IMG/VR virus record: IMGVR_UViG_3300050498_000431
Coordinates: 1 to 62,798 of that record
Reading direction: 5' to 3' (one strand)
DNA length: 62,798 bases
Source of the DNA: a virus
Lineage: Duplodnaviria > Caudoviricetes
Positions 1-40,712 of the stretch are shown piece by piece. The translations under genes were made by a program, and so were the position numbers. The notes under the pieces were generated by a model that had not been told where the DNA came from, searched no databases, and worked only from the letters and a program-made list of their open reading frames with translations. Each line of letters begins with the position of its first letter. The stretch's first letter is position 1.

Positions 1-276
1 CCACCCGTGGAGACGCAGGTTCCAAGTCAACAGCCGGTGACCGTCCAGATTCCCGTCCCCCAGACCACCGCGCCGGTCATCCCGGTCAACCCCAAGGTCG
101 TGCCGAAACAGCCGCATGCGCCAGGGACGGTGGCCCTGCCCGCACAGCCGCAGGTGGCGAAGGTCCCCTGGGCCAGCACGCCCCCCCCGTCGACGACCAT
201 GATGGCGAGTGGTCCGCCGACCACGGTGCGCACCGAGCAACCGACGCCGACGCCTCCCGGCACACGCTGTCCGTGA
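1..276 (+). CDS. 3' end of a Pro/Thr/Val-rich protein (truncated by window start)
   Basis: Frame open from base 1 (PPVETQVPSQQP...) to TGA at 274-276; low-complexity, linker-like composition. Confidence 0.5.
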   Translation, partial: PPVETQVPSQQPVTVQIPVPQTTAPVIPVNPKVVPKQPHAPGTVALPAQPQVAKVPWASTPPPSTTMMASGPPTTVRTEQPTPTPPGTRCP

Positions 277-437
277 GGGAGGGGTAACGCGCCATGAGAC
301 TGTACCAGGACTGTCCTGGTACGGGGACGTCTGAAGGCACACGACTTCGTGCCTTCAGACCACAGGAGGGGAGCCGGGTAGCCGCCGCGCTCCCCTCATA
401 CCGGCGCTGGCCTCCGTGCCAGCCCAAAGGAGTAGGT

Positions 438-596
438 ATGAAAGTGCAGACCAACCTGAAGGCCGGGATCTCGGCCTCGTATTCCCAAACAACCTCGGTC
501 TCGTATTCCCAGAGCTTAAGTGGACCGGGAAGCCTCTCGCAGACGATCGAGCTGTCCCAAAGCAATAGCGTTAGCTCGTCCTCGTCCTGCGGGTAG
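438..596 (+). CDS. 52-aa Ser-rich small peptide with MKVQTNLKAG leader-like N-terminus
   Basis: AAGGAG RBS at 427-432, ATG at 438, TAG at 594-596, followed by a GC hairpin. Confidence 0.65.
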   Translation: MKVQTNLKAGISASYSQTTSVSYSQSLSGPGSLSQTIELSQSNSVSSSSSCG

Positions 597-609
597 CGCT
601 CGATGACTG

Positions 610-635
610 GGCGGGAGGGTGCACGCCCTCCCGCC
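610..635. terminator. GC-rich hairpin between convergent genes
   Basis: GGCGGGAGGGT-GCAC-GCCCTCCCGCC 11-bp stem; no clear U-tract. Confidence 0.45.
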
Positions 636-795
636 TCCCCTCCTAAGCAAGGAGCCCCCACGCGTGCCCCCTGATCCGCGTCTCGATCCGACCGACCTGG
701 GTCCCAGTGGTGCCGGGTGTGTCCTCGGCCTGGCATTGACGGCGCTCGGCATGGCGCTGGGGACCGTGCTCTGGTGGCTCCTAGGGTAGGCAGGC

Positions 796-954
796 TTAGC
801 GATGACCCATCAGCAGCCACACAACGAGGATAACTAAGAGCACGCCCACGATGCCCGATGGCCCCCATCCGTAGCTGTGATACCCCCAGTTTGGCAGACC
901 GCCGAGCAGAACCACCAGCAATATGACGATAAGCACGAGGAAGAGCGGGGACAT
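796..954 (-). CDS. DUF3309-like small membrane protein (52 aa, below the ORF-track cutoff)
   Basis: Hand translation MSPLFLVLIVILLVVLLGGLPNWGYHSYGWGPSGIVGVLLVILVVWLLMGHR; AGGAGG RBS; GGLP-x-W...GxGPSG signature between two hydrophobic helices. Confidence 0.75.
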   Translation of the reverse strand: MSPLFLVLIVILLVVLLGGLPNWGYHSYGWGPSGIVGVLLVILVVWLLMGHR

Positions 955-963
955 AAGGACCTC

Positions 964-1182
964 CTAGGGGCCGAGCATGCGCTCTAACTCCGTGCACTCA
1001 TAGAGCGTGGCCCCGCCCGTCACGGTGACCACGCGCACGTAGACAAATGGCCACGGGAAGCCAGCCGACCACACACAACTTCGGATCTGGCGGTCATTGA
1101 GGGCGACACTGACCTCGTCCAGGTGCCGAAAACACCCCGGACAGAGCAGGCAGCACAGCAGCAGCACGCCCCAGCGTGTCAT
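964..1182 (-). CDS. small putative lipoprotein or exported protein
   Basis: MTRWGVLLLCCLLCPGC lipobox-like N-terminus; TGATG overlap with the GH9 stop codon. Confidence 0.6.
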   Translation of the reverse strand: MTRWGVLLLCCLLCPGCFRHLDEVSVALNDRQIRSCVWSAGFPWPFVYVRVVTVTGGATLYECTELERMLGP

Positions 1183-3044
1183 CAGGGGTTCGCTACAAAG
1201 TGTGCTAGTAAATGAACTAGGGCGGCTTGATAGGCTATGCTGGGTTCTGTAAACTCCCACATCTTCTGCGGAGTGCCTGTGTTGCCATCAACGTATGCCT
1301 TGAGTATCGGTTGGCCAACCGGCGGCGTGGGCAATCCCGTACCCGTAAACACCGGGTTAACGCCCCCGGTAAGAAAGCCGGGCATGGGTCCTTTCGTCGA
1401 GGTCAGCGCATTATCCCACTCCGTTCCGTTATCTGCCCAGGCGTGCGCCATTTCATTTGCGCTCCGCGTCGCCCCATAGGCATTCATATTCGTGAGGAAG
1501 ACCAGCCCCAGGGGATTCACCCCGAGCAGATAGTGGAGATATCCCGCCGCCGCATACCGATAGTTCGTGGCATTGGCGCTGTCGAGGTTGTAGCGCACCT
1601 GATCGAGAAAAAGCAGCCCGATATGGGCCTTATTGCGGTTGACGCCCCAGACATAGTCGGCATCCTTGAGATACGCCCGGTAGGCATCCGTCGCACTGGT
1701 CACCGCCCCGTAAAACTCACTCCCCCCAATCCCGGACGTCTTACTATTCTGGATCGCGGTTTTGACAGCCGGTGTCGCACCCGCCAGAGCACTATAGTAG
1801 AGCACGGCTTGTTGCCCATACACATCAGGCGGGAAGCTGTACCAGTACGTATTGCCAATCGCCGTGAGCGTCGTGTAATTCGCCTCAAAGTACGTCTTAT
1901 AGGCCGCCGTATTCGTCCGGGCATAGAGATACGCGGCGGCTTGGATCTGACAGAGCGCCCGGCCATACGTGCTGGGTTCTGGATTCGCGGACCCAAAGCC
2001 GGTATTGGTATAGCCCACGGCGTTGTTGGCTTGTGCCCAGGTCCAGGCACTCTCCGCCGCGGTGGTGAGGGTGGTGGCGTAGCTCGCTTGCCCGGCTGCA
2101 GCAAACGCGAGAGCCCCCAGGGCAAAGACCGACGCCGTACAGGCGGTGCTGGCCGTTGAGGCGGCCCCCCAGTAATGGGCATTCGTATCGGCGCTCGGTG
2201 GAGATGTTGCTTGTGTCCCCGTGACCGCGACCTTTGACAGGACACTGTTGTTCCCCGTGGCGGTCTGCATGCGCAGCAGCCAGTCGAGCTCCCACTTCGC
2301 CTCGTCGAGCAGATCGGGGATACCGTTGCCCGACTCAGGGATATTCAGGTCATCGGTCCAGATTGAGGGATACTGAAGATAGGCGAGCAGCAGATCGGTG
2401 AGGGCATACGTGGCCCAGACCGTGTATTTATTATAATCACCCGCATCAAACCAGCCGCCGCGCACGTCTTTGGCGGTCCCCGCGTTGCCCTGATCCACAA
2501 TACTGCGGGCCGCCGTATCTTGGCCGGTCCCCAAAAACGCCGCCCCATCCGCCCACTTGGCATCCGTAAAGGGCGCCGCCTTCGCAAAGCCACTTCGTTG
2601 GTAGTAAAACATGCGCAGGGCGTGCCGGAGCACCATGGTATAGGCGGTATCACTCACCACAAAAAAGTCGCTGCGGGCATTCAGGGCGGGATCAAAGAGA
2701 TAATAGGTGCCAGGCGTCGTCAATGCCGAGAAATCCACCCACCAGACCTTATCGCCGCTCTGCGTATGGGTTGCCCCGCCGTTCCAGGCCGTCGGGGTGA
2801 CCGTGGTCATGACCGCCGTATCGCTCCGCCGCCGCACCTCCAGACTGGCGGACGGCGTGTAATTGGTTGCAGCATCAAAGCCCGTTTGCGGATCACGGGC
2901 GACGGCGATTTTGCGAGCGCTCGTCGTATAGCCAAACTGATTCAGGACCACCGGGAACAGGGTCGTGGGAGGCTCGGGAAGACACGCTGCCACCACCACG
3001 TGCGGCACGCACAGCCACAGGACAAGCAGCCACCACAGGCGCAT
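1182..3044 (-). CDS. glycoside hydrolase family 9 (endoglucanase-like) with N-terminal Ig-like domain and signal peptide
   Basis: GGWFDAGDYNKY catalytic motif, NQFGY Ig-domain start, HYLLGVNPLG and C-terminal WEFTEPSIAYQAAL; hydrophobic N-terminus. Confidence 0.88.
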   Translation of the reverse strand: MRLWWLLVLWLCVPHVVVAACLPEPPTTLFPVVLNQFGYTTSARKIAVARDPQTGFDAATNYTPSASLEVRRRSDTAVMTTVTPTAWNGGATHTQSGDKVWWVDFSALTTPGTYYLFDPALNARSDFFVVSDTAYTMVLRHALRMFYYQRSGFAKAAPFTDAKWADGAAFLGTGQDTAARSIVDQGNAGTAKDVRGGWFDAGDYNKYTVWATYALTDLLLAYLQYPSIWTDDLNIPESGNGIPDLLDEAKWELDWLLRMQTATGNNSVLSKVAVTGTQATSPPSADTNAHYWGAASTASTACTASVFALGALAFAAAGQASYATTLTTAAESAWTWAQANNAVGYTNTGFGSANPEPSTYGRALCQIQAAAYLYARTNTAAYKTYFEANYTTLTAIGNTYWYSFPPDVYGQQAVLYYSALAGATPAVKTAIQNSKTSGIGGSEFYGAVTSATDAYRAYLKDADYVWGVNRNKAHIGLLFLDQVRYNLDSANATNYRYAAAGYLHYLLGVNPLGLVFLTNMNAYGATRSANEMAHAWADNGTEWDNALTSTKGPMPGFLTGGVNPVFTGTGLPTPPVGQPILKAYVDGNTGTPQKMWEFTEPSIAYQAALVHLLAHFVANP

Positions 3045-3056
3045 AGGACACTCCCT

Positions 3057-6000
3057 TTAAAAATACCACCCGGCCTGCCCCAGGTTCTGCTCGCGCACCG
3101 TCACCGCTGGCCCTTGCGGGACCACGGGCGTGGCTTTGAGGAAGAGCACGGCATCCTGGGGAGGGGTCATCGGGGTCGTGAAGGTCTGCGCGCCCGCACT
3201 GGCCACGGTGAGCGGGGCGGCCGTCATCGTCGTGCGCGCCGTCGGATCAAACCACTCGACCGCATACTGTCCGGCCAGGAGGTTCACGGTAAACGAGCCC
3301 GCCGCCGGCTGATAGACCAGATATTCTTCGCCCGGCCAGACGAGGGCATAGCCGGTGGAGGTCAGCTCGGGATGGGGGACCGCCTGGCCCAGATGGAGCT
3401 TGGTGGCATAGGTCCGCGTATCGCCCATGCGAATCCGTGCTTCATACGTGAGGGTGGCGCCCGTCGTATCGGACGGGTTATCGGGCTCGGTATGATCCGG
3501 GAAAAAGGCGTTGCCCTCTAAGAGGGTGGGATTCCCCCCCCGCATGAGCATCTGCCAGACCCACGGATAGCCGCAGTGATAGGGCAAAATATGGTCACTA
3601 TCGGGCATGCTCACCTTCTGCCCGGCGTAATCTGGCAGGATCGTACAGACCCCCGTATTACTTTGGGAAAAACCAATTTGCACAAAGTCGGCATGCGAGC
3701 CAAGCAGAAAGCTCACGACGGCGGGATTGGCGGCATACGAGGACCCCGTGGCCCGAAAATCGCTAATACTCACCATACGCCGAGGGGTGAAACACTGGAC
3801 CTGTTGCTCGTCATTAATGACATCCACGATGCGGTTGGCAAAAAACCCCACCGTACCCCCGTCCAGCGCCTGCGTTTCGAGCTCGTTCCCCACTTCATAG
3901 AGGACATTGGGCGCATTGCCGACGGCGCGGACCAGGTCCCGCGTGTACGCTTCGTTGAAGGCGAGATTGTCAAAGGGCGCCGAGGTGGTCAGGGGCAAGA
4001 TGTTCACCCCGACGTAGATGCCCAGATCCGCCGCCTGGGTCACCCGGGACGCGAGGATCGTAAAGTAGTTGGTACTCTGGGCGGAGCCATCATAGTCCTG
4101 GCTCGGCACCCGGATATAGTTGTGGTTGTTGGCCACGACATAGTTGAGATAGTCGGTGACCTCCGCGTCCGGCATCGTCGAGGCAAAGTTCCAGGAATAG
4201 GCGCCGGTCAGATAGACAATGTCCCCGGACTGATTCTCAAAATAGCGGGGATTCGTCGTGGACACCCGTAAGGGCGTGGGGGCTGGAGCTCCCCCCTCGT
4301 TCCGCTCCCAGGCGCCCACGTCTTGGGCGCCCTGGCGGCGCGGTTGGCCGCCGTAATCGGTGAGGATACTGGGGATCGCGTCGCCGGTATTAATCCCTGG
4401 CGAGCCATTGCCTAGGTGCAAATTGGTCGGCGCGGCCACAAAGAGGGGATCGCCGCCGAGGGCACAGGCCGCGCTCGTGGCGGCACAGAGATTCTTGGCC
4501 ACCGTCGCCCCGCAGTTATTAACAATATTGCCCCCGGTATTACCGTACACAATATTGTTACGAAAGTCGCTGCTGGATGCCCCCGTATCACACTGGAGCC
4601 CGGCCCCCGTATTGCCGTAGATGGTGCTATTATAGACCCGCGTGCCGCTCACGCCCGTGTGGACCCACACCCCCCGGCCGCCATTGGAGTGCACGAGCAG
4701 ATTTTGCAAGAGCGCGCCCGTCCCGGCATTCATATCGATCCCAGCGCCGCTGTTATTGCGGATTTCGGTTTCGCGGATGGTAATATTGGTTTTCGTGCCA
4801 CTGGCCGAGATGCTCAGGCCCGCGCCGCCAGCACTGACCAGGTGGCACTGCTGACACAGAAAGCCATCAACGTCCGCCACAAGCGCCAGCGCATCGGACT
4901 GCACGTGATGGATAAAGACGCGGGTGACCTCGATCTGATCGGCCCCGTCCACATAGAGCCCCTCAAACTGGCCCGTGGTGGTGCCCTTGATCTCCAGGCG
5001 ATCCAAGACAATATGATGGGCACTCGCCGTGAGGGCGACGACGTTGGAGGTCCGATTGGCCCCGTCGACGACCACGTTGGTAATCGTGACATAGCTCACG
5101 TCAGAGTTGAGCCACAGCGTCACGCTGCCCCCCGGCGGCGACTGCAGCACTGGGGGGGTCGTGCCATAGCCTTCGATGCGCGTATTGGTACTCATGCTCG
5201 GGCCGACGCCACCCGTAATCGGTTGCCGCAGCGTCTGCCATTCCTCGACATAGACCGCGCCGTTGCCCTCGACGTACATGACTTTCCCCGGCACGGTGAG
5301 ACACGCCAGCCCGCCAGCCCAGGTCTTTTTGGCGGTGGTCGGCGCCTCGGCGGCCACGCAACTGTTGCTGTCGTCGCCCACAACCCCCCGCACGTAGATC
5401 GGGTTCCCCGTGGCGGGGGTGGTACCACCCCCGCCGCCTTCGACAAACTCCAGCGCGCCCTGATCGTAGGCAATGCCTTGGGGGCGGGCCTTCTTGTCAA
5501 AGTCGGTGGGGACTGTGGGGAGCGGAAACCCCTGATTGCGCGCGGGGCTGGTGGCGAGCAGGTGGAAATTCCCCGCGCTGGCGTTCTCGAATTGAGGATT
5601 CGTCCCAATAAGGTTGTCATGGACAACTTTACCTGGGGGGTTGTAATCGGAGAAGTCCCCCGCCGTATTGTTATAGAGGATATTGTTAATGGCCTCGACA
5701 TTATCAGCTTGGGGGAACAGGACAAGTCCTGCGTTATCGGTACTGCCATAAATGGTATTGTTGTAGACTTTACAGTTCTTACAGCTATCCGTAATGTCAA
5801 TTCCACCAAAACTCCCGTAGATAATGTTGTTTTGGGCCACATTATTGCTGCCACTGGCCAAGACCATAGCTGAATACTGGGTGTAGTATCCTACACTGAA
5901 ATTCCATGAGTGATACCCAGCATTATAAATGCTATTCCCGTCAACCAGATTGTTGGACACAATGGTGGAATTGCTATCAAAGATGTGGAAGGCATAGCCA

Positions 6001-7766
6001 CCAATATTCCTGAAGATATTGTTCTTAAAGATGGAATTGTTGCCAGAGAAATAAAATCCATAGGTGGCAATGTCATGGATGTAACTGTCAAGAAACTGTA
6101 AGTCTGTGACCGCACCATTGGCCCCATGTAGCGGGGAGTTCATCATTTCCACCTGGCTAAAACGGATATGGCTTGGCCCGTTGTTAAGGAACATTGCCAC
6201 CCTATCCCCTTCAAAGGGGAGAGCTCCACCATCAAAGACAAGTCGTTCAAAAATCATCCAGCTGGCATCGGCGGCCATTTCAAGGGGACTTGAGTCTGAG
6301 GGTCGAATGGTAGCCGTCTCGCCGGGGTAACTGGCAATAATCGTTGCTGTCGCCCAGGACCCCCCACCACTGGGAGGCCAGGTGCCAATCACATAAGAAA
6401 TCCTGGTGGTATAGGTGCCTTGCCTCAAGAGGAGTTTATCACCAGAGGCGAGACGGGCAATGCCTCCTGCCAAGGAACACGGGGAGGCTTCGGAACACGG
6501 CGACGTACTACTGGAGGTCGGCGAGGAATAATAGACATTGCCGCTGCCTGGGGGTGTAGGGTCAGGAGGAGTGCCCCCGCCGCCTTGCACAAACTCCAAC
6601 GCGCCGATGTCATACGCCCCGCCTGCGGGCATAGGCCGGGCCTTTTTGTCAAAATCGTTCGTAACACCGGGCACCGGGACGCCCGCATCAATCGCCGGAG
6701 AGCCAGGGAGGAGATTGAAGACTCCGGCGGCGGCATTCTCGAATTTGGGGTCGGTTCCATCGGTCAAATTGTGGTGGAACACCAGCCCGGGCGGGTGCCA
6801 ATCTTCCACATTCAGATGGGGATTCGCATAGCTAATATTGTTGATGACCTCCATATTATCGCCCCCGTTGCCCGAACTCAGCTGAATGCCACTCCCATCG
6901 GTGCTCCCATAGACCGTATTGTTGTAGACTTTGCAATTGAGGCAGGTATCGCCCACCTGGATACCACCCCAACTCCCATAGACCAGATTGTTCTTGGCTA
7001 TATTGTTGCTCCCACTCGTCATAATGAGCGCATGGATGCCCCGGTAGTTGCCTTCGTAGTCTCGTGAGGCATGGCCCACATTGGAAATCCGGTTGCCCTC
7101 CACGACATTGTTGGAGAGCGTGGTTTGCCCAGAATCGTAGATATGGAACGCGGACCCACCGGTGTTGACGATGGTGTTGCCGCGGAACAGGGAGTCGTGG
7201 CCCGTGAAATACCAGCCATAGGTTTGCAGATCATGAATATAGCAGTCAATAAATTCCATGAACGCCCCGCTGGCCGCAAAGCCATGATGTGGGCTATTTT
7301 TGAGCTCCACCTGGTTCCAGCGGAGGTGATGGAGATTCGGTCCGGGATTCATAAACACGATGTCGTTAAAGGGGCTGTCGGGCATGCCTGAGCCATCCAA
7401 GACGAGGCGGTCAAAGATGATCCAGTTGGCGTTATTATCGATTTGCACGACGTTACTGTTGCCCGTGGGACGCAAGATTGCCGTTTCGTTCGGCGCGCTG
7501 GCCAGGACGCTGGCCGTCGCCCAGGACCCGCCGCCACTGGGGACCGCCAGGCCCTGGACATACGACAGGTAGGTGGTATAGGTCCCCCCTTTGAGCAAGA
7601 GGGTATCCCCCGAGGCCATGCGCCCCAGGCCCCCGGCCAGGGAACACGGATTGCCTTCGGAGCAGGTCGAGCCCCCCCCGGACGGGGAGGCATAGTAGGT
7701 GGCGGCATGCGCCGGGCGTGCGGCGAGGCCCCCAAGGAGCACGAGCAGCAACAGGAGGATGGGCAT
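3057..7766 (-). CDS. large exported protein: three right-handed beta-helix (pectate lyase-like) domains plus C-terminal glycoside hydrolase-like and beta-sandwich domains
   Basis: Signal peptide ending AHA; three modules each with YNNT(I/V)YG ladders and ending D-x-D...R...(Y/Q)D-x-GA-x-E; C-terminal NPRYF...YEVGNE and Y-x-VEWFDP motifs. Confidence 0.8.
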   Translation of the reverse strand: MPILLLLLVLLGGLAARPAHAATYYASPSGGGSTCSEGNPCSLAGGLGRMASGDTLLLKGGTYTTYLSYVQGLAVPSGGGSWATASVLASAPNETAILRPTGNSNVVQIDNNANWIIFDRLVLDGSGMPDSPFNDIVFMNPGPNLHHLRWNQVELKNSPHHGFAASGAFMEFIDCYIHDLQTYGWYFTGHDSLFRGNTIVNTGGSAFHIYDSGQTTLSNNVVEGNRISNVGHASRDYEGNYRGIHALIMTSGSNNIAKNNLVYGSWGGIQVGDTCLNCKVYNNTVYGSTDGSGIQLSSGNGGDNMEVINNISYANPHLNVEDWHPPGLVFHHNLTDGTDPKFENAAAGVFNLLPGSPAIDAGVPVPGVTNDFDKKARPMPAGGAYDIGALEFVQGGGGTPPDPTPPGSGNVYYSSPTSSSTSPCSEASPCSLAGGIARLASGDKLLLRQGTYTTRISYVIGTWPPSGGGSWATATIIASYPGETATIRPSDSSPLEMAADASWMIFERLVFDGGALPFEGDRVAMFLNNGPSHIRFSQVEMMNSPLHGANGAVTDLQFLDSYIHDIATYGFYFSGNNSIFKNNIFRNIGGYAFHIFDSNSTIVSNNLVDGNSIYNAGYHSWNFSVGYYTQYSAMVLASGSNNVAQNNIIYGSFGGIDITDSCKNCKVYNNTIYGSTDNAGLVLFPQADNVEAINNILYNNTAGDFSDYNPPGKVVHDNLIGTNPQFENASAGNFHLLATSPARNQGFPLPTVPTDFDKKARPQGIAYDQGALEFVEGGGGGTTPATGNPIYVRGVVGDDSNSCVAAEAPTTAKKTWAGGLACLTVPGKVMYVEGNGAVYVEEWQTLRQPITGGVGPSMSTNTRIEGYGTTPPVLQSPPGGSVTLWLNSDVSYVTITNVVVDGANRTSNVVALTASAHHIVLDRLEIKGTTTGQFEGLYVDGADQIEVTRVFIHHVQSDALALVADVDGFLCQQCHLVSAGGAGLSISASGTKTNITIRETEIRNNSGAGIDMNAGTGALLQNLLVHSNGGRGVWVHTGVSGTRVYNSTIYGNTGAGLQCDTGASSSDFRNNIVYGNTGGNIVNNCGATVAKNLCAATSAACALGGDPLFVAAPTNLHLGNGSPGINTGDAIPSILTDYGGQPRRQGAQDVGAWERNEGGAPAPTPLRVSTTNPRYFENQSGDIVYLTGAYSWNFASTMPDAEVTDYLNYVVANNHNYIRVPSQDYDGSAQSTNYFTILASRVTQAADLGIYVGVNILPLTTSAPFDNLAFNEAYTRDLVRAVGNAPNVLYEVGNELETQALDGGTVGFFANRIVDVINDEQQVQCFTPRRMVSISDFRATGSSYAANPAVVSFLLGSHADFVQIGFSQSNTGVCTILPDYAGQKVSMPDSDHILPYHCGYPWVWQMLMRGGNPTLLEGNAFFPDHTEPDNPSDTTGATLTYEARIRMGDTRTYATKLHLGQAVPHPELTSTGYALVWPGEEYLVYQPAAGSFTVNLLAGQYAVEWFDPTARTTMTAAPLTVASAGAQTFTTPMTPPQDAVLFLKATPVVPQGPAVTVREQNLGQAGWYF

Positions 7767-7775
7767 AGGGGTCTC

Positions 7776-8633
7776 CTACGGTTGTTGGCCAAAAAAGGGG
7801 AAGAAGCGAGGCGTGCGCCCGGGCGTGAGTCCGGAGGGCGCCGCCGCGACCGCGCTAGGAGCAGCAGGCAGCAGCGTGGGATAGCCCTGGCGGGCTTCGC
7901 GGCGCAGGGCACACACCTCGGCCTGTGACAGCGCACGGTCAAACAGCATCATATCGTCGAGGGTGCCACTCAGGCGCTCGCCCCCACCGGAGTCGCCGCC
8001 CAGGGACAGGACCCCCCCACTAATCGCGGTAGTGCCACCGCCAGGGGCTTGCGTAAAGTCGGTGGCACAGTCAATATACGTCGCACTTCCCTGGGCATTA
8101 CTATGCGTAAAGGTGACTTGGGTCCGGACCCCCACGGGCACACTCAACGCGCCGGTGCCATCGTAACTGGGATTCGCCACATTCGCGGAATAGAACAGGT
8201 AGAGTTTGCCGTCACTGCGGACGTGGAGAATGCGCAACCCCCCCCCATCGGAAAACCACAGCGCTTGATAGCTCCCACCCGTGGCGGTCCGCGTGACCCA
8301 CGTGACAATGGTGATCGCGGGAGGGGCAATACTCGTATCAAAGGGGATGCGCACGACATCATCGTTGCCGTCAAAGCGGAGGGTCGCCCCGGCGCCGCTG
8401 CGGTGGGGCCGGCCCCAGGTCACGCCATTCAGGAGCGCGCCATGGTTCCGCCGCACGAGGTCGTACCACGTCCCACTGCCACTCAGCCCGGGCGGCGCAT
8501 ACCACCACGACACCAGGCCCCGCGCGAGCGGCGCGCTCCGCTGCACCTGACTTTGCGCCTGGACCGTGGCGGCGGTCAGCAGCAGGCTCAGGGTAATGAT
8601 TGCAAGATGTAGGGCGTACATCGGAGTGTCCAT
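7776..8633 (-). CDS. exported LamG / concanavalin A-like lectin-fold protein
   Basis: LRFDGNDD and GTLDDMMLFDRALS LamG motifs; signal peptide ending VQA; start could be 8633 or 8621. Confidence 0.75.
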   Translation of the reverse strand: MDTPMYALHLAIITLSLLLTAATVQAQSQVQRSAPLARGLVSWWYAPPGLSGSGTWYDLVRRNHGALLNGVTWGRPHRSGAGATLRFDGNDDVVRIPFDTSIAPPAITIVTWVTRTATGGSYQALWFSDGGGLRILHVRSDGKLYLFYSANVANPSYDGTGALSVPVGVRTQVTFTHSNAQGSATYIDCATDFTQAPGGGTTAISGGVLSLGGDSGGGERLSGTLDDMMLFDRALSQAEVCALRREARQGYPTLLPAAPSAVAAAPSGLTPGRTPRFFPFFGQQP

Positions 8634-9094
8634 GGGGCGCCTTGCAGGGTCACGCCCGTGCCATCATTTTTGAGCAAGGCCTTAAAGACGCCGCGCGGGA
8701 GCTCAATATTCGGAATCATAATGCGTTGCGCGGTACTCACGGCCCGTAAGGGAAACACCAGATCGGGCACCCGGGCGGGATCCGTCCCGGCGGCGCCGTC
8801 TTCAAAGTTGGTCCCGTCCGCTTGGCGAATGAGCCACACGACCACGGCGGTATTGGCCGCGACGGCGCCACTCCACGCCCCCGTATTCAGTTCACAGTCG
8901 GCCCGGGTGTAGTTCCCACTCGTCAGCGTAATGTTCGCAGAAAGCACACTGGAGCCACTGGCAAGCCCGGTACTGGTGGTAATCCAGGTATCGATGGTGC
9001 CCCGGAGCCAGACGAAGGTGGAGGCGGCCCAAGTCGGTGGCGCCCAGAGCACAAGACTCAGGAGGAGGAGGAGAAGAACGAGACGTGTCCTCAT
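8588..9094 (-). CDS. exported beta-sandwich protein, probable paralogue of the C-terminal part of 31448-32254
   Basis: Signal peptide ending TWA; ATGA overlap with upstream gene. Confidence 0.65.
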   Translation of the reverse strand: MRTRLVLLLLLLSLVLWAPPTWAASTFVWLRGTIDTWITTSTGLASGSSVLSANITLTSGNYTRADCELNTGAWSGAVAANTAVVVWLIRQADGTNFEDGAAGTDPARVPDLVFPLRAVSTAQRIMIPNIELPRGVFKALLKNDGTGVTLQGAPWTLRCTPYILQSLP

Positions 9095-9696
9095 GGCCGT
9101 TCCCCCCCCCGCAGTGCGAACCGAATATCGTGCTGCGTCAAGACGCCTTCCCAGACGAGGAGCCCAGGGTCCGCATTGCTGCCCGCGCCCTGGGTCACAT
9201 AGATTTTTTCCGCGCGTGTGACGGCCCGCGTCGACTGCTGCTGAATATGGTTGCGGTTGTTCGTGGCATTGCCAGGGTTTTTGAAAATCGCATCCAGGGC
9301 GCTGCGCACGTTGGGCAAACTCGCATCCATAGACGGGGGGGTCCCATCAAAAAAGTCATGAAAGGTCATGAGCTCCTGCACGGTCAACGTCAGGTAGCCG
9401 TTGCCCTCAAAGATAAAGCTCGTGTTGGCCGGGGACTTCTCAAAGAGCAGGGCCTTGCGCGTCACCGCCGTCCGATACACCTGGAACGTGGGCGTCACCG
9501 GCTGGTTGTAGCGATCGGCGATCACCTGATCCCGGCCCGCCGTGATATCGGCTTGATTTTCGTTCACATCCGTCACCGTAATTTGAGTCTTGAGTTGCTG
9601 ATACTGGGCGTCCGTTAGCGTCGTGGCCGCGCCGCCCCAGGCGAGACTTGCCCACCCGAGGAGCAGCCACACAGCCAGAGCCGCACGACTATGCAT
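9091..9696 (-). CDS. exported hypothetical protein, paralogue of 32254-32769
   Basis: Signal peptide ending AWG; shared IA-x2-YNQ-x3-P-x-F-x-V-x-RTA and AEK...G-x-G...P...G-x-LT motifs. Confidence 0.7.
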   Translation of the reverse strand: MHSRAALAVWLLLGWASLAWGGAATTLTDAQYQQLKTQITVTDVNENQADITAGRDQVIADRYNQPVTPTFQVYRTAVTRKALLFEKSPANTSFIFEGNGYLTLTVQELMTFHDFFDGTPPSMDASLPNVRSALDAIFKNPGNATNNRNHIQQQSTRAVTRAEKIYVTQGAGSNADPGLLVWEGVLTQHDIRFALRGGERP

Positions 9697-9709
9697 AGTT
9701 CTTTTTCTC

Positions 9710-10657
9710 CTAATTGGTCGCTATAACCTGGTGCTTTCCGTCCGTTTGTGAATAGGACAAGCCAATATCAAACCACCCCATTCCTGCGGCCGTGGCGGGG
9801 CAGGTCATGGCAAGGGGAATATTGGGCGACGGCAAAAAGCCCGCCGTACTCAACGTCAACACCTGCGCGTTAGTGCACCGCAAGCTAATCCGCGTCAGCG
9901 TGCCATCCGTCACTGTGCCACTCATGGTGATCGTGAGCGTTCCGGCCGCCCCGGTCATGGTGTAGCGGCACAGGGCGGCAATCTGTGCATTGCAGTTCAG
10001 GGTCGTGGCTGTCCCCGTACTCGTCGTCACGCCCCGCCCGACGCCCTGGGTCGTCGCCACGGAGCCATACTTGGCGGACACCGCATTAAAGATGACCTTG
10101 ACCCGATCCGTCCGTGTGCCGTCCCCGGTGGTGGTGCTCGGCAGTGGAATGCCGTTTTCGGTGGTATAGATCGCGTGCCAGGTCAGCGCCCGGGGCGTGG
10201 TGGACTTGAACCGAAACGAAAGCTCCTGCTCCTCGGTGGGATTCCCCCCGGTCCCGATGGGCGCGTTAATCGTCAGATCCCCGGTAATGCCATCGACCAG
10301 GACGACGTCGGTCGTGTCGAGATTGGGCGTAATGGATAAGGGGCTTCCCGCTGGGGTATAGGCGACGGCCTTGGGCACGGCCTGCTTATTGGTGACTTTT
10401 TGGGCGCCTGCGAGCGTCACCACGCTGCTGCCATCGACCAGCGTGGCCAACGACACGGCCGCACACACGGCCGTCCCATCAGGGCGAAAGCCGCTCACAA
10501 AGTTATTCGTGCCGCAGTTGGCGAGCGTGCCCGCCCGGAGCTTGTTCAGGCGGATATTGCTGGCGTGCATACGCCCACCGAGTTGCTGGGCCTCACTCAG
10601 GGTGAACGTACCACTGGTGAAGAGGAGGAGCAAACAGAGCAGGCCTCGTCGCATCAT
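9710..10657 (-). CDS. exported fibre-like protein with two related C-terminal beta modules
   Basis: MMRRGLLCLLLLFTSGTFTLSEA signal peptide; Thr/Gly-rich, phage fibre-like composition. Confidence 0.6.
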   Translation of the reverse strand: MMRRGLLCLLLLFTSGTFTLSEAQQLGGRMHASNIRLNKLRAGTLANCGTNNFVSGFRPDGTAVCAAVSLATLVDGSSVVTLAGAQKVTNKQAVPKAVAYTPAGSPLSITPNLDTTDVVLVDGITGDLTINAPIGTGGNPTEEQELSFRFKSTTPRALTWHAIYTTENGIPLPSTTTGDGTRTDRVKVIFNAVSAKYGSVATTQGVGRGVTTSTGTATTLNCNAQIAALCRYTMTGAAGTLTITMSGTVTDGTLTRISLRCTNAQVLTLSTAGFLPSPNIPLAMTCPATAAGMGWFDIGLSYSQTDGKHQVIATN

Positions 10658-10682
10658 CAACACCCCCATAGGACAATACAAA

Positions 10683-11180
10683 CTAAAACTCACCACAGCT
10701 CACAATAAGATTGATCCGCGTCGCCGCCGTGAGCGCCGTCGCATAGGTGGCCTGGAGCGTATCGCCCGTCGCCAATTGAATATAGGGATTGCCGTCGCTA
10801 TCGAGCGGCAAGCCCGGCCAGAGCGTCGGCGCCAGCAGATTGAGGGGCGGCGTCCCATTGAGAAAGCCCTGACTGACGGTGGTAGCCGCCGCCACCCCGC
10901 CGAACCGGATGCCCCCACTCACCACCTGCACGGTCACGAGATGGGTGACTGTCCCGTCATCCGTGGTGAGCCACATGGCATTACAGCGCGCGCCGTTGGT
11001 CCCGGCCGTGTAGAGTGTTTTGTAGGTCCCGGCGGTATCGGTGCCCTGGAGAAACTGCACCTTGCCCACCGTGGGCGTCTGCATAAAGACTGGACTATTG
11101 GGCGTCACCGCCGCCCAGCTCGGCCCCGCCAGGACGGTCCCGAGCAGGGCCAGGAAGCCCACGAGTCGTCGCCTGTACAT
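10683..11180 (-). CDS. exported hypothetical protein (fibre-associated beta-sandwich?)
   Basis: MYRRRLVGFLALLGTVLAGPSWA signal peptide; GGAGGG RBS. Confidence 0.65.
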   Translation of the reverse strand: MYRRRLVGFLALLGTVLAGPSWAAVTPNSPVFMQTPTVGKVQFLQGTDTAGTYKTLYTAGTNGARCNAMWLTTDDGTVTHLVTVQVVSGGIRFGGVAAATTVSQGFLNGTPPLNLLAPTLWPGLPLDSDGNPYIQLATGDTLQATYATALTAATRINLIVSCGEF

Positions 11181-11181
11181 C

Positions 11182-11655
11182 CTAGAGCCCTCCTGCATGA
11201 GCATGGGCACTGAGGGCCGTCGTGGCGGTCACAAAGGCCGGCACCCCGCCGCCCCCCGATCCGCCGCCGCCCCCCGGTCCCCCGCCCGTGAGTTGCATGT
11301 TGGTCCCGTCATAGCAGACCGTGATGATCTGCCCATTCGCTACATCATTGGCGGCGAGGTCCGTTGCCACCGTTGCCACAAATTTCTTCAACGTCTTCGG
11401 GCCGCGCCCATTGATATTGAGCGTCGCGGCGCCCGTCACGGTATGATTCGCGGCGAACATAAAGCACTGATTGGTCACATAGGCCGCGATGGCCGGGTTG
11501 AGTGTCAGGACAAATGCATTGCCGCTCCCCGTCGCGGTCCCGGCATTAATCGTGCCCGCCACCGTCAGGTTACTGTTAAAAAACTGACCTTGTGCCCAGG
11601 CAGGCACGCTCCAGAGTCCCAGGAGTACCAGGGCCAGTCCTGCGACCTTCATCAT
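11182..11655 (-). CDS. exported tail-fibre-like domain protein
   Basis: MMKVAGLALVLLGLWSVPAWA signal peptide; ATLNINGRG-x-K...YDGTN motif common in phage fibres; ATGA overlap with the S74 fibre gene. Confidence 0.65.
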   Translation of the reverse strand: MMKVAGLALVLLGLWSVPAWAQGQFFNSNLTVAGTINAGTATGSGNAFVLTLNPAIAAYVTNQCFMFAANHTVTGAATLNINGRGPKTLKKFVATVATDLAANDVANGQIITVCYDGTNMQLTGGGPGGGGGSGGGGVPAFVTATTALSAHAHAGGL

Positions 11656-13145
11656 GCTGCACCTCCTTGTGCTGTGAGGGCTTCGAGCACCGTCACGCGC
11701 TCGGCGAGCGCCTCCTTGTCCTGGCGCGCCGTCTCCAGGAGCTGGCATACCGTTTTGAGCGCATTGAGGAGCAGGTACGGGAGGGCCTCGGTATCGAGGG
11801 CCAGGAGGTCCGTCTCCTCACTGTTGGGCGTCAGCACGCCCCGACGACTTGTGACCATATAGGGGGCCACAGCCTGTACAGCTTGCGCCCGGAGGCCGAT
11901 ATGGCGCTGCTGCGTGATCGGGATTCCACCCTGGCCGTTATAGCGAAACCAGATGGGATCGAGCGCTAGGAGGACGTCGAGCCCCTCCAGAAACGGCTCG
12001 ATGTCCTTTTTGAGCCGTTCGTCCGAGGGACTCAGCCAACTGCCACCGCCGGGCTTCGTCGCGGTGCCCGTAATCGTCAGATTGCCGCTATTATCAGTCG
12101 TCTGGACAACACTGCCCGTTTTATTCAGGGTTTCGACCACTTCACCGCTGCCCATCTGGAGCAGGAGGGCGCCGTCATCACTCAAGACCCGCACAGCAGA
12201 GGCATTCGTCACCCCCGCATCCCGGATTTCAAAGTCGCTGCCGGTGATGGCGGTGGCTTTGACAATGAGGAGGCGACCGCTGGTGGGGGTAACAAACGTC
12301 ATCACGACATCATACGTGTTCGGATCGACCGTAATGGTGTTGGGCAGGAGGCTCTGCCGCGGGCTCCCGTTATCATAGACGGCGAAAAGGAGGGCCGCCG
12401 TCCCGAGCCCATGCGTGGCGCCGGGCACGCTGACCGTCGTGGCGCTGGTAAAGGTCGCCACAAACCGCGGGCCGGCCGCACTCACAATGATCGTCCCGCT
12501 CGCGGGCGTGACAAAGGTGACGCTCACGTCTGCGGTCGCGGGGGCAATACTGACGGGGACCTGCGTCAGGATATTCTGGTTGCCACTCACGGTATAGACG
12601 CGCACGAGCAGATCGGCGGTGCCGAGGGCATGCGTGCTACCGGGAATGCTGACGGTCGTTTGGTTCGTAAACGCCATCGTATATTGGGGACTCGGCGCGG
12701 CCAGGCTGATGACCCCGGTTTGCGGCGTAAGGAACGTAAAGGTGGCATCATACGTGAGGGTGTTGATGGCCACCGTATTGGGCTGAATGACCTGGCGCGG
12801 CGTCTCGGCATTGTACGCCTGGAAGAGGGGAGCGGCCGTGCCAAGGCGATGCGTGGTGCCCGCAATCGTGACGCTGGTCGTGGCATTGAAGGTGAAAAAG
12901 AGCGGGCTCTCGCCGCCGCCGGGCAAGAACTGTTGCAGGCGCGCCGCGAGGGAGCCAAACGTGCCTTGCGGATTCGTGCCGAGCGTCGTTTCAATGGCGA
13001 CGGTGGCCGCCAAGCTATCGTTGATGACCTCGGCATCCAACCTCGATGCCGAATCGGGGGCTATCGGCGCGGAATTGATAAACGTCTGCCGTGTATCGAT
13101 CGCTCCTGGAAATCCCGTGCCTATCCCCGCGCCGAGTTGGGCCAT
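11652..13145 (-). CDS. tail fibre with C-terminal peptidase S74 intramolecular chaperone
   Basis: SDERLKKDI autocleavage motif, GL-x-AQ-x-V and terminal coiled coil; three internal TH-x-LGTA...TF-x-TP repeats. Confidence 0.85.
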   Translation of the reverse strand: MAQLGAGIGTGFPGAIDTRQTFINSAPIAPDSASRLDAEVINDSLAATVAIETTLGTNPQGTFGSLAARLQQFLPGGGESPLFFTFNATTSVTIAGTTHRLGTAAPLFQAYNAETPRQVIQPNTVAINTLTYDATFTFLTPQTGVISLAAPSPQYTMAFTNQTTVSIPGSTHALGTADLLVRVYTVSGNQNILTQVPVSIAPATADVSVTFVTPASGTIIVSAAGPRFVATFTSATTVSVPGATHGLGTAALLFAVYDNGSPRQSLLPNTITVDPNTYDVVMTFVTPTSGRLLIVKATAITGSDFEIRDAGVTNASAVRVLSDDGALLLQMGSGEVVETLNKTGSVVQTTDNSGNLTITGTATKPGGGSWLSPSDERLKKDIEPFLEGLDVLLALDPIWFRYNGQGGIPITQQRHIGLRAQAVQAVAPYMVTSRRGVLTPNSEETDLLALDTEALPYLLLNALKTVCQLLETARQDKEALAERVTVLEALTAQGGAA

Positions 13146-13146
13146 T

Positions 13147-13473
13147 TTAGACCTGCCCTTTCTGGCCTTCGAGCGCCTCGACACGAACCGTGAGTGCGGC
13201 GACCTGTTCGACCAAGGCCTCTAGCGTCACGCCTGCGACGGCCACGAATGGTCCCTGCGACGGCATGGTGTGCGGACGCACGTCCTGCACGACTTGCTCT
13301 CCGAACACGCGCCACTGGTCCTGCATCCGCGAAGGCGGCACCTCGTCGCGGACCAGATACCCATAGCCAGGCTCGTCCGGGCCACGCTGTGCCTCGACAA
13401 AGGCCCGTGTGCTACTCTCCCAGAGCCCGACAATGAGGCCGTCGTCCGTGCGGTATTTGAGCAGATAGGGCAT
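13147..13473 (-). CDS. hypothetical tail-associated protein
   Basis: Translationally coupled between the tip and fibre genes; C-terminal coiled coil. Confidence 0.6.
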   Translation of the reverse strand: MPYLLKYRTDDGLIVGLWESSTRAFVEAQRGPDEPGYGYLVRDEVPPSRMQDQWRVFGEQVVQDVRPHTMPSQGPFVAVAGVTLEALVEQVAALTVRVEALEGQKGQV

Positions 13474-16400
13474 CAGCGCTGCCTCCGCAACCCGACCATC
13501 TTGATATGATCCGCCGCAACATTGTTGACACCCGTGCCGTTCATAAAGGTCGCCACAAAGGCTTTTGCCCCGAAATCACTCGGCGCCGTGTAGACCGCTT
13601 GCACGACCATGGTGGAGCGAAAATTGCCAATCATCTGGCCAAAGGTCAACTCGCCCCCGGCGACACTATCCTCGCGGATACGCAGATAACAGGCATCCGC
13701 ACTCGTGGCCACGCTGACGGTGGCGGTGAGCGTCATCCAGACCTGATCCCCGGCCTTCAGCTCAAACACGAGCGATGCGAGCGCGGTTTCACTCGTCGTC
13801 ACGCTCATGCCCACAATATCCGTATAGGACACACTGTTCGTCACGGCGTTGATGTAAATCTTCTCCGTGACCACGGCCGACGGGGCGATCCCGGGCGTTT
13901 GTGCCCCGGTCTCCGGGCTCCACATGAGCGAGCCATCCGGGTGGTAAATGAGGATGCTATAGTTGGTCGGTCCCGCCGCAATGCGCCCGATCCAGACGCG
14001 AATCGTGTTGTTGTCATCACGGACAATGATCTGGCGGTTCACACCATCGAGAGTAATGGGGGCAAACGACCCGGCAATCGGGCCGCCGAGCAGCAACTGG
14101 GCATTGATCGTGCCTGCAGTGATTTTATCGGCGCGCAGGTCGCTAATCTGGCTTGTAGTGACAATCTCCTCGGCAATTTGCGCGGTGCCCGTAATCAGGG
14201 CCGTATCGGTACGCAGATGGCCCGCATTGATGACGCCAGTTTTAATCCCGGCCGCCGTCACCCCTTCCGCATTCGCGTCAAACATGAGCCCGCCGATATT
14301 GTTAAAAATCTGAATGCCGTACTGATCCGACAGCGGCCCCAACTTCCCGAGCAACACGCGGTTATTGCCCAGATACTGATCCCGGATGACCATAAGACTA
14401 TTCGTGCCATCAATATAGACGCGATCGGCCACGCCAATACTCACGAGCGCGGTCAGTTGCCCCGTGAGGATTTTCGTGGCGACGAGCGAGCTAATATACG
14501 TGTCATCGAGTTGCCCGGCGACGGCCGTGACGCCCGCCGTCGGCGAGGCCGGGTGAAACGGCCCAATATTGCCCGAGGTATCGACGGGGCGAATCCAGTA
14601 ATAGGCCCGTTGGTTGGGGGCAAACCCGGTGTGTTCAAAGCTATAGCTGCCCTGGCCAATCACCCCGGCCGTACTGCGATCGTTGAGCCCGGACGTCCAG
14701 ACCTCACTGTAGTCGTAATCCAGATCGCCCGGCGGCGTCCACAGGAGGGCGATCTTTTGCACGGTGCCAATGGCATGCAGGTTCGCGGCCGCCGAGGGCG
14801 GCGTCCCATCGCGGCCGGTGGTAATGGAGACCTCGGGATCGGTAAACGCACTGAGGTTCGCCAGGCGATCAATCGAGGCGATCTTGGCAAAGACCGTGAC
14901 ATTGCCGGGGACAAAAATTTTATAGCTCGTATCAAAGCGCCCGGGCTGCACCACCGTGGGGATATTCGGCGAGGCCACGCGAAACACGAGTTGATAGCCG
15001 TTTAGATCCTCTTCCCCCTGGGCGTTCCAGTGGGCCATCACCCAGGTCATGACCGTCCCGTCGGCGCTGGCATCGGTGCCCGTGGTGAGAAACAGGCCCG
15101 TGGGGACGGCTGGCGGCGTATTGTCCAGTTTGTCTGCTGTGAGGGCGACGGGCGTAAAGGACGCGATCTGCGAACCCAGGCCGATGCCAAACGAATCATA
15201 GGGAATAATCTGGACGTAATACGTGAGGTCCGCAATCAGATCGGGAATGAGCAGCAGCTGGGTATCGGTACCCAACGTCTGGTTGGGGATGGTGGGCGGG
15301 TTGCCGGCATCGAGCAACACCAGAAAATGATCAAAATCCCTGGGGCGTACCCATTGTTTCCAATCCACGCGACCCGCCACAAAAAGCCCACTGGCTTCCG
15401 GCAAGATGTTACTCATGTCCGGGGGCGGATTGGTGACCACGATGACCGCCGGGTCGAGCGAGAGCAGTCCCGTATTCGTGACCGCCCACACCATAATTTG
15501 CAAGTCGCGCCGTGCCCCGGCGTAGCCGCTGCGAATCTGGTCTTCTTCGTTTTGCTGATGCGTGTATGTCCACTGCACGCTTTGGCCGACCGGGGCCAGC
15601 GCCGCGTTGAAGGCGCGCAGGAGGTACAGTTGGCCCGGTGCCCAGACCTGGACGACATAGAAGGCGACAAAGAACGTCTCGCTAAACAACGGGCTGTCGG
15701 CGACGCTATCCCACTCGACATGGAGGTCCCGCCCTTCCCAGATGCTCACTCCCACGGCTTGGCCCTGCAGGCGCAAGTTGCGCGGAGAGGCAGGGAAATA
15801 GCCCGGCGTCGTGGGACCGGCGACATGGATGACGGCCTCGCGCGCCCCGGCATTATTGGGGACGCCCAAGTACGAGATCGGCACGACGCGGTATTGATAC
15901 GTCGAACCACTAATGGCCGTATAGTCGTCCCAGTCCAGGACATGGCCCCGCACTTGAATGATCGGCGTATAGTTATAGTTGGGGTCATTCGGATCGCTAA
16001 TCGCCCCGGCGCCAATCGTGCCCGCCTGCACCTGGCCGAGTTGCCCCGTGGCCTCCAGCACGCGGCGCAAGATCATGGCCCCCCCATACGGGGCATAGCC
16101 ACTACTGAGGGGCGCCACATCCCACGAGAGATTAATCACGCGCAGGCTGGCCCCGCTCGTCTGAATCCGCGTCACTTCCGTGGCCACGAGACTGAGAAGC
16201 GGCGGCGGCGGGCCTTCCGGGTTAAAGAGCGTCGTAATGACAGGAAGCGGCGACGCCACGGCCTCATCATAGATACTGGGATTGTGAATCAGCGCTTCGA
16301 GGCTCACCGTCAAATCGCTTTTGCGCCGTAGCCCGGTCACGCGAAACGTGCGCGTATTGGCATTGGTCGTCAACGTGCCAAAGACGAAGGTCGAGGTGCG

Positions 16401-32254: not shown

Positions 32255-32769
32255 TAGGGGATGGCCCAGGCTTGTTCCACATCACTGCCGGTGAGTTGCC
32301 CCTGAAAGCCCATCACAGCGGGAGAGGCCGTGGTGCCCGTGCCACTGCTGGGGACGATGAGGAGCTTTTCCGCCTCCGAGGCTTTCTCGCGCCCCAAGGC
32401 CAGCAGGAAATTGACTTGTTGCTGCGAGGCGCCCTGCCCGCCAAAAATCGCCTGCCACCCGGCACGGGTTTGTGCCAAGGACGGATTCACCACGCCTGGA
32501 TTAAACATGCGCGCCCAGCTATCCCGGTCTTGCACCGTTTGGGCTTTGTACGTACTCCAGTTCCAAAATGTCCCATCAGGGGACGTGGCTTCGTAGACCT
32601 CTTGCTCGGCGAGGGCCGTACGCCAGACCCAGAAATCGGGCGACGCCACCTGGTTATAGCCCGCCGCAATGGTGTAGGCGTTTTCACCCGTCTGCGCCAT
32701 GGAGCCATAGACCGGGTGCGCGGCAATGTCGGCTTTGAGGAGCGTCAGTTGTTGCGTGGTGAGCGGCAT
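32254..32769 (-). CDS. virion-associated hypothetical protein
   Basis: Coupled gene; clear paralogue at 9091-9696. Confidence 0.65.
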   Translation of the reverse strand: MPLTTQQLTLLKADIAAHPVYGSMAQTGENAYTIAAGYNQVASPDFWVWRTALAEQEVYEATSPDGTFWNWSTYKAQTVQDRDSWARMFNPGVVNPSLAQTRAGWQAIFGGQGASQQQVNFLLALGREKASEAEKLLIVPSSGTGTTASPAVMGFQGQLTGSDVEQAWAIP

Positions 32770-35812: not shown

Positions 35813-35814
35813 GG

Positions 35815-38709: not shown

Positions 38710-38794
38710 ACGCACCCTCTCGGTGTGTGTGGGAGGCCAGCATCCCGCCAGCCAGGGACCAGCTACCACAACATCCCATTGTGGTAGGCGGGCA

Positions 38795-40640: not shown

Positions 40641-40650
40641 GGTTTTCCTT

Positions 40651-40688: not shown

Positions 40689-40712
40689 GTCTTGTCTGTA
40701 TATTGTTATGGA

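Follow-up and report, generated by a model that had tools for sequence, protein, structure and literature searches.

Consecutive genes with Sec-type leaders follow the tail fibre gene of a siphovirus-like phage and may encode an exported fibre, lectin and glycanase set

The stretch of DNA analysed in this study (the window) is IMG/VR record IMGVR_UViG_3300050498_000431 from a virus of the Caudoviricetes, a single, whole contig of 62,798 bases. Nine minus-strand open reading frames (ORFs), named A to I, were confirmed at positions 964-11655, directly after the gene of a tail fibre with a Peptidase_S74 domain (the S74 fibre), and each begins with a hydrophobic leader (Table 1). The ATG of A overlaps the TGA of the S74 fibre gene (ATGA), an overlap of the same type joins D and E, and the spacing between neighbouring genes of the block ranges from -46 to +25 nucleotides (nt). 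Shine-Dalgarno-like runs were found upstream of the starts of A, B, D, G and H, while promoter- and terminator-like consensus sites in positions 1-14000 were no commoner than in shuffled sequences (6 against 4.7 and 13 against 9.4, respectively). Since the genes are packed or overlapping and such sites are not in excess, the block reads as the distal end of a late operon. An earlier note on this DNA had described nine consecutive genes with Sec-type leaders, the first coupled by ATGA to the fibre gene, and the coordinates, the leader anatomy and a heuristic search bear this description out.

In all nine block proteins (9/9) the n-region is short and mostly basic and leads into a hydrophobic stretch free of charges, with small residues at positions -3/-1. 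For the heuristic, a leader was defined as a 10-residue uncharged window with a mean Kyte-Doolittle value of at least 2.3, located at most 18 residues from the start and followed by a small -3/-1 pair. Eight of the nine block ORFs passed, compared with 5 of the 82 other ORFs (Fisher p 1.3e-7), and A missed only because its longest ORF opens 31 codons upstream; from the coupled start it passes. The five passes outside the block were the 52-aa membrane protein beside the block, a start within the J gene and three further ORFs that are small or membrane-like. By the heuristic, A to G have tripartite leaders, with F and G lacking a net positive n-region. The GC content at third codon positions (GC3) of the leader codons is 0.77 (184 codons), like that of the coding sequence of this contig, and the in-frame start codon that comes next falls, gene by gene, either within the leader or 7-29 residues past the predicted cut. 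According to the earlier note, the proposal would fall if the true starts lay downstream of the hydrophobic segments. Such wrong start codons were rejected because of the coding-type GC3, the Shine-Dalgarno-like runs and the positions of the next starts, use of which would cost conserved residues. Twin-arginine translocation (Tat) signals were rejected as well, as no twin-arginine consensus is present except RRR in B, and so were prepilin leaders, as the G/F motif is absent.

A side observation concerns the first mature residue. The residue after the predicted cut is Gln in 9/9 aligned members of the A family, and C and F likewise begin with Gln. A 'Q-rule' of pyroglutamate N-termini is described for Bacteroidetes (PMC5837995); just 3 of the 7 signal peptidase I (SPase I)-type sites in the block fit it.

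The earlier note had also called for a survey of other phages for the same block. Relatives of A were found in thirteen IMG/VR loci, the genes after the fibre keep hydrophobic leaders in each of them, and consecutive runs of 9, 6, 6 and 5 leader genes were detected in loci L086, L081, L084 and L088, respectively. Identity to the relatives, pooled, is 52% for the leaders (214/413) compared with 67% for the first 100 mature residues (1268/1900). Homologues lacking a leader begin at or near the predicted sites. The E family occurs in 75 viral loci, and nearly all of its members are leaderless proteins of ~148 aa, which in the alignment begin opposite the residue that follows the predicted cut of E. 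Leaderless homologues of D begin within a few residues of its predicted cleavage site and those of F at the predicted site of F or within a few residues of it, while in the leaderless homologues of A and C the shared domain lies inside or at the end of ordinary fibres.

Cysteine content also tracks the leaders, both within this phage and in the three unrelated families of A, E and C. The mature parts of the block contain 1.19% cysteine compared with 0.37% in 21 other structural proteins of this phage (p 1.8e-6), and the cysteine counts of A, B, C, E, F and G are even. For the A domain, counts were made on the 150 best representatives, 56 leader-bearing and 94 others. The cysteine pair at profile positions 64/114 was present in 31/99 domains (29/56 proteins) of the leader-bearing proteins and in 4/299 domains (4/94 proteins) of the remaining representatives, several of the 94 'leaderless' proteins looking, by eye, like N-terminally cut leader forms. 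Among the distinct viral-locus proteins of this type, the pair occurs in 11, of which 7 were flagged by the heuristic, 2 narrowly miss its threshold although their leaders are evident, and 2 are N-terminally cut; it occurs in 0/32 leaderless viral-locus proteins. The cysteine pair of E is present in leader forms and absent from leaderless forms. Close homologues of C have leaders in 13/17 cases, with 6-13 cysteines, and distant homologues, mostly collagen-like fibres, have a leader in 0/72, with 1-2 cysteines in the 19 that were counted. Neighbouring genes switch jointly: the gene downstream of a leaderless E, usually an F-type lectin, is leaderless in 67/67 distinct loci, and the gene downstream of a leader-bearing E is leader-bearing in 4/4 loci. 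Taken with the conservation of the leaders, the start sites of the homologues and the cysteine pairs, this makes it very probable that A to H are exported and fold oxidatively outside the cytoplasm, and the corresponding proposal of the earlier note is strongly supported.

Table 1. Features of the window, block genes first. Slashes in leader ends mark predicted cuts; E, E value; Cys, cysteine.
Feature	Length (aa)	Position	Strand	Description
A	157	11182-11655	-	Leader ..AWA/QGQ; ~100-aa tail-fibre domain, Gly-rich linker, short HxH-containing tail
B	165	10683-11180	-	Leader ..SWA/A; 2 Cys; no known family
C	315	9710-10657	-	Leader ..SEA/QQ; duplicated fibre-tip domain (~71-203, 217-313); 6 Cys
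D	201	9091-9696	-	Leader ..AWG/G; helical; first of D-E-F trio
E	168	8588-9094	-	Leader ..TWA/A; jelly-roll beta-sandwich; 2 Cys
F	285	7776-8633	-	Leader ..VQA/Q; concanavalin-like lectin domain; 2 Cys
G	1569	3057-7766	-	Leader ..AHA/A; three right-handed beta-helix modules; 20 Cys
H	620	1182-3044	-	Leader ends VVAA/C; glycoside hydrolase family 9 (GH9) endoglucanase, N-terminal immunoglobulin-like domain
I	72	964-1182	-	Hydrophobic leader; LCPG/C; 2 further Cys
Two-helix membrane protein	52	796-954	-	Just after I
S74 tail fibre	510	11652-13184	-	Leaderless; Peptidase_S74 chaperone; Pfam, PHROG
D'		32254-32769	-	D vs D' E 3.6e-14; leaderless
E'		31448-32254	-	E profile vs E' E 6.3e-8; leaderless
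F'	1258	27650-31426	-	Laminin_G_3; F vs F' E 1.5e-8; leaderless
gp80-like 'fibre I' protein		32780-33613	-	Gp80 Pfam E 1.1e-48; leaderless
J-like tip protein		13473-18758	-	Family search
Tape measure		20188-23565	-	Family search; internal SLT lytic transglycosylase domain (E 4.5e-28)
Major capsid		36922-37857	-	Family search
Scaffold		37930-38769	-	Family search
Head morphogenesis protein		50454-51503	-	Family search
Portal		54481-56079	-	Family search
Large terminase		56025-57527	-	Family search

The ~100-aa domain of A matched chain 2 of PDB entry 9b45, 'gp47 Tail fiber', by profile (E 1.2e-8, chain residues 236-302); this entry code is given in the cryo-electron microscopy paper on phage Pa193. 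Proteins of the A family are 157-776 aa long and share one layout, a leader followed by a conserved ~100-aa domain and a variable C-terminus, with Q22, C64 and C114 invariant. In distant phages the same leader and domain stand at the head of proteins of 249-776 aa. The domain is carried by 25,709 representative proteins (E ≤ 1e-3), often in tandem, and leader-bearing proteins with this fibre domain are not confined to this phage, as they make up 56 of the 150 best representatives. The tip of C shares homology with the C-terminal ends of collagen-like fibre proteins that lack a leader. L088 encodes a fusion of an A-type domain with the domain that makes up the body of C, and a further leader protein with a C-type tip is found in L130; from these arrangements A and C look like modules of one fibre family. 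For B no family was found in searches of the Pfam, PHROG and NCBIfam type. Its relatives occur solely in the close relatives L081-L085 and L185 (74-89% identity), and its neighbours in the protein atlas are viral hypothetical clusters, which serve as leads only.

D, E and F form a widespread phage trio that is found in dozens of phages, normally among structural genes. The model of D (predicted local distance difference test, pLDDT, 79.6) gave 0 fold matches at E ≤ 0.001, and PDB sequence searches with E and D gave no match. The model of E (pLDDT 92.9) is a jelly-roll with weak fold likeness to the carbohydrate-binding modules CBM36, CBM4 and CBM6 and to lambda tail-tip domains (template modelling score 0.3-0.4). 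F matched PF13385 Laminin_G_3 (E 2.9e-20, 73.4 bits, cutoff 27.6). A complex prediction of F (residues 27-285) with E (residues 24-168), made with alignments, scored 0.29 (mark 0.32) and counts neither for nor against a contact.

G matched PF13229 Beta_helix (E 7e-37, 4 stretches), NosD, and NF041518 choice_anch_Q (E 5.5e-26, 90.6 bits, cutoff 25) in 3 stretches, one per beta-helix module. Its C-terminal ~480 aa gave weak leads to GH5 endoglucanases (E 0.006-0.04) and an atlas score of 0.77 to apiosidase-like clusters, and may represent a glycosidase of clan GH-A. H matched PF00759 Glyco_hydro_9 (E 3.5e-55) over profile positions 1-444 of 444, and CelD_N too, with the motif DAGD at residue 200, which we take to be that of the GH9 catalytic domain. 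The closest relatives of H are 50-57% identical and belong to metagenome-assembled genomes (MAGs) of Verrucomicrobiota, Acidobacteriota and Bacteroidota. As type I leaders were present on most of the 28 N-termini of relatives that were read, H looks like a captured secreted bacterial enzyme. Judged by their homologues, A to F are thus assigned to ordinary virion fibre families, and G and H are both of bacterial secreted type and predicted to cut polysaccharides. The earlier note had called the mature parts fibre, lectin and depolymerase domains, and the Laminin_G_3, Beta_helix, GH9 and gp47 matches together with the homology of the C tip agree with this.

The same phage encodes a second, leaderless set, D'-E'-F', directly after the gp80-like 'fibre I' gene and between head and tail genes (Table 1). 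F' matches tail fibre chains in PDB, and part of it falls where the GC content of the contig is highest (0.713 at 28001-30000). As leaderless paralogues of D, E and F are kept, the exported set is predicted to supplement the cytoplasmic fibre genes rather than replace them. Together with the assembly route at lysis that is proposed below, it is conceivable, at a little less than an even chance for the two jointly, that families of the D-E-F type switch blockwise between cytoplasmic and exported forms and that this phage runs both.

In the reading that we favour, A to H are very probably late genes, co-transcribed and partly translationally coupled with the tail fibre gene. Their products very probably pass the Sec translocon and lose their leaders, with H, like I, perhaps lipid-anchored, and folding and disulfide formation very probably take place in the periplasm of a soil-dwelling diderm. 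The particle would be built in the cytoplasm, so that particle and exported proteins could meet only at lysis. At that point A to F would dock on the released particle as outer, disulfide-hardened host-recognition appendages, and G and H would either travel with them or act free on the coat of cellulose or extracellular polymeric substances (EPS) of the host. For I and the 52-aa membrane protein a function in lysis or exclusion is more likely. That the particle takes up at least the fibre and lectin members when the cell lyses is a tentative proposal, to which we give slightly less than even weight. We are equally cautious about the wider idea that diderm phages of soil and water may possess a second assembly route, in which a receptor-binding set is exported by Sec, folded in the periplasm and added at lysis.

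The position of the block and two cultured phages point in this direction. The ATGA coupling between the fibre gene and A is kept in L081, L084, L085 and L088, and in relatives of the L090 type leader-bearing A-type genes stand amid the structural module. In the Cellulophaga phage phi18:3 (NC_021794), gp085-087 all have leaders (3/3) and are all annotated from 'experimental MS/MS proteomics analysis' of virions (MS/MS, tandem mass spectrometry). In phi10:1 (NC_021802), gp091-095 have leaders on all five and four of them (gp091-094), including a 'tail fiber protein' and a 'pectate lyase', are annotated from virion MS/MS. Both sets stand at the far end of the tail genes, with the endolysin gene a few genes further on; no leader was found among the 9 + 9 other structural proteins of phi18:3 and phi10:1 that were examined. 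The earlier note had proposed three roles, namely addition to virions, clearing of matrix, and masking or destruction of the receptor. Sequence cannot separate them, and the Cellulophaga records, by analogy, lend weight to the first.

Several points weigh against a place on the particle. The virion evidence from Cellulophaga consists of GenBank record annotations, and mass spectrometry of virion preparations can include co-purifying material; moreover, the Cellulophaga proteins have no detectable sequence similarity to the block. The phage has kept the leaderless S74 fibre and the D'-E'-F' set, and its particle may need nothing periplasmic. G and H resemble captured bacterial secreted enzymes and not trimeric tailspikes with a particle-binding N-terminus, and no candidate docking site on the particle was identified. 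In addition, two contigs of Bryobacterales MAGs (L107, 4904-11131, and L108, 979-5107) contain three consecutive leader genes, one with an A-type domain, and no phage-like genes were seen around them by ORF listing. They may encode surface proteins of bacteria that are related to the phage module. Given such leader proteins in bacterial contigs, the A domain would function without a particle too.

The proteins may instead be exported and never become part of the virion, with A to H free or bound to the envelope; we regard this as possible, though rather less than evenly probable. G and H would then cut cellulose or EPS for the escape of progeny, and the fibre and lectin proteins would bind, mask or mark receptor glycans, so that superinfection is excluded and fewer progeny are lost on debris. 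All of the evidence for export fits this explanation equally, the phage owns a leaderless fibre set, G and H are of bacterial secreted type, and A-type proteins with leaders were also seen in bacterial contigs that have no phage-like neighbours. The block is flanked by the tail fibre gene on one side and by lysis-type genes on the other; in L130, too, it is followed by i-spanin-like and lysozyme-like genes. Precedents exist as well: the mosaic adhesive trimer (MAT) fibres of Bdellovibrio, which are exported fibre-like trimers, can work from the cell surface (PMC10769870), and 5% of prophage carbohydrate-active enzymes (CAZymes; 3261/64,678) bear signal peptides (PMC13507307). However, six of the eight proteins are non-enzymes from virion fibre families, their tight coupling to the fibre gene is conserved, and leader proteins in the same position are annotated from virion MS/MS in the two cultured phages. 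A role that lasts minutes before lysis would also be a weaker reason for disulfides in several families, and access to surface glycans before lysis needs a route across the outer membrane.

Two further explanations have far lower standing. In one, which we consider improbable, the block is cargo for the benefit of the host (lysogenic conversion or auxiliary metabolic genes), and a prophage would express a secreted cellulase or glycanase together with adhesins. A GH9 and a beta-helix enzyme are classic 'viral CAZyme' finds (PMC13507307), and a divergent pair of helix-turn-helix (HTH) regulators near 61.1-62.0 kb, noted by sequence reading, hints at a temperate style. Against this, the genes are packed into or overlap with the late tail operon and have no separate promoter or terminator signal, no integrase was found among the ~40 proteins put through family searches, leader-bearing E had no integrated copy in 185,579 species genomes, and members of fibre families are of no evident host use. 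A moron or lysogenic conversion cassette was rejected on the gaps between the genes, the two ATGA overlaps and the shuffle-like site counts. The least probable explanation, which we think very unlikely to be correct, is that the N-termini are not cleaved export signals and represent inner-membrane anchors on the cytoplasmic face, assembly tags or miscalled starts. The absence of a basic n-region in F and G and the imperfect lipoboxes of H and I would agree with it, but small -3/-1 residues follow every hydrophobic region, the leaderless homologues begin at the predicted sites and cysteine pairs track leaders. The leader codons have coding-type GC3, Shine-Dalgarno-like sites precede the starts that include the leaders, and downstream starts would delete conserved residues.

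Compared with known systems, the favoured proposal of addition at lysis departs from the textbook assembly of tailed phages, which is wholly cytoplasmic. Virion depolymerase tailspikes and branched fibre sets place beta-helix glycanases and fibres or lectins in a row after the tail tip genes. The block resembles the branched sets in its fast-diverging distal members, F and G being 36-47% identical to their counterparts in relatives, compared with 61-92% for A-E in the same relatives; such sets and tailspikes differ in being leaderless and assembled in the cytoplasm. Single proteins that phages export are familiar, such as endolysins of the Sec or signal-arrest-release (SAR) type and small lipoproteins whose genes lie beside receptor-binding genes (T5 Llp, Cor, lambda Bor/Lom). 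I is comparable to Llp and Cor in size and position, whereas those are single lysis or exclusion proteins and not an eight-gene run of fibres, lectins and glycanases. The layout recurs in phi10:1 and phi18:3, where 3-5 consecutive genes with Sec-type leaders close the tail genes shortly ahead of the endolysin gene; these phages differ in their Bacteroidota host (Cellulophaga baltica), and the three phi18:3 proteins have 0-3 cysteines.

The MAT fibres of Bdellovibrio bacteriovorus (Caulton et al. 2024, PMC10769870) are exported and displayed outside the cytoplasm, and the products of the block are likewise predicted to be exported. For MAT fibres a conserved ~130-aa domain is described right after the signal peptide (PMC10769870), and the layout of the A family equals this description of signal peptide, conserved N-domain and variable fibre tip, the comparison being one of descriptions. 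MAT fibres differ in that a bacterium makes them for display on itself, and their genes do not belong to a phage late operon. A PDB profile search with A gave no MAT match, and the MAT entries in PDB hold C-terminal parts only. H and G would fall into the class of prophage CAZymes with signal peptides. The survey of these enzymes (PMC13507307) excluded tail-fibre and structural genes on purpose and treated the enzymes as helpers of host metabolism, and linked exported fibre modules are not described there.

No paper on exported tail-fibre modules of tailed phages, or on the leaders of the Cellulophaga proteins, turned up in full-text literature searches. New here is that the use of host export by a phage very probably extends to a whole fibre, lectin and glycanase module, and the homologues suggest that, in this phage as in many uncultured relatives, several families gained leaders and disulfides independently of one another. 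Proof of the virion route would add an assembly step of a new kind. If the proteins join the particle, phage assembly has an unrecognised extracytoplasmic step, prediction of host range from 'tail fibre' genes must allow for export, and heterologous or cell-free phage production would fail without export and Dsb functions. If they act free, they form a phage secretome for matrix digestion and receptor masking, and soil 'viral CAZymes' would be read as infection gear and not as metabolic helpers. The question is testable now with the two cultured Cellulophaga phages, which have the same layout.

The ninth gene needs to be set apart. Its leader is lipobox-like, as the earlier note had observed, but its place in the fibre set did not hold, since I fits better into a lysis or exclusion neighbourhood. 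The lipobox pattern is [LVI][ASTVI][GAS]C at the end of the hydrophobic region; LCPG/C of I fits it poorly, and VAA/C of H fits it yet could equally be an SPase I site. A homologue of I in L086 (33% identity, E 1e-6) has a canonical lipobox, ..LWTG/C, and is located after proteins with a transmembrane segment and a coiled coil. The 52-aa membrane protein has a homologue in L130 (50% identity, E 1.6e-6) directly after a lysozyme-like gene, by reading of the sequence, and is probably part of a lysis cassette. From these two contexts, I is probably a small lipoprotein-like protein of the lysis or exclusion neighbourhood. An o-spanin is a small outer-membrane lipoprotein that pairs with an i-spanin, which has an N-terminal transmembrane segment and a periplasmic coiled coil. 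No endolysin, holin or i-spanin homologue was recognised among the window proteins searched, and none of the i-spanin-like proteins of the relatives matches the window; the relatives carry such genes right after the block. Thus, the contig may be cut at the end next to the block.

Beyond the block, family searches gave a siphovirus-like gene layout on the minus strand (Table 1). The SLT domain of the tape measure presumably has a role in wall penetration at entry. The S74 fibre matched PF13884 Peptidase_S74 (E 3.3e-13, 50.1 bits, cutoff 22) at residues 387-444, which form a C-terminal intramolecular chaperone, and PHROG tail fibre families; the upstream fibres of L086 and L088 are homologous to it. 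No terminal repeat and no transfer RNA were found on the contig, and no DNA similarity was found to 50,697 deposited phage genomes. Relatives of the capsid protein occur in phage-sized contigs binned to seven or more unrelated phyla, and A-type leader proteins point to MAGs of Bryobacterales and Acidobacteriaceae. The GC content near 0.6 and these affiliations fit a soil or freshwater diderm host, such as a member of Acidobacteriota or Verrucomicrobiota.

Several minor features were noted on the remainder of the contig. An island of lower GC content (0.52-0.56) at 40116-42513 on the minus strand, between the capsid and portal modules, encodes a DndB-like protein (E 2.7e-21), a T5orf172/MUG113 protein and a Dam-type methylase, and may be anti-defence or defence cargo. 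An HNH endonuclease gene (53642-54463) lies on the plus strand, opposite to and beside the portal gene, and a DnaT_2-like protein of single-stranded DNA-binding type is encoded among the head-tail genes (35282-35926, minus strand). By reading of translations, the divergent HTH-like genes at 61141-62030 have the look of a regulatory switch, and a plus-strand ORF cut by the contig end (62153-62797) has a DPPY-type motif and the look of a DNA methyltransferase. At the other end, in positions 1-790, a minus-strand ORF rich in Gly and Cys (27-263, GC3 0.86) overlaps a Pro-rich open frame on the plus strand.

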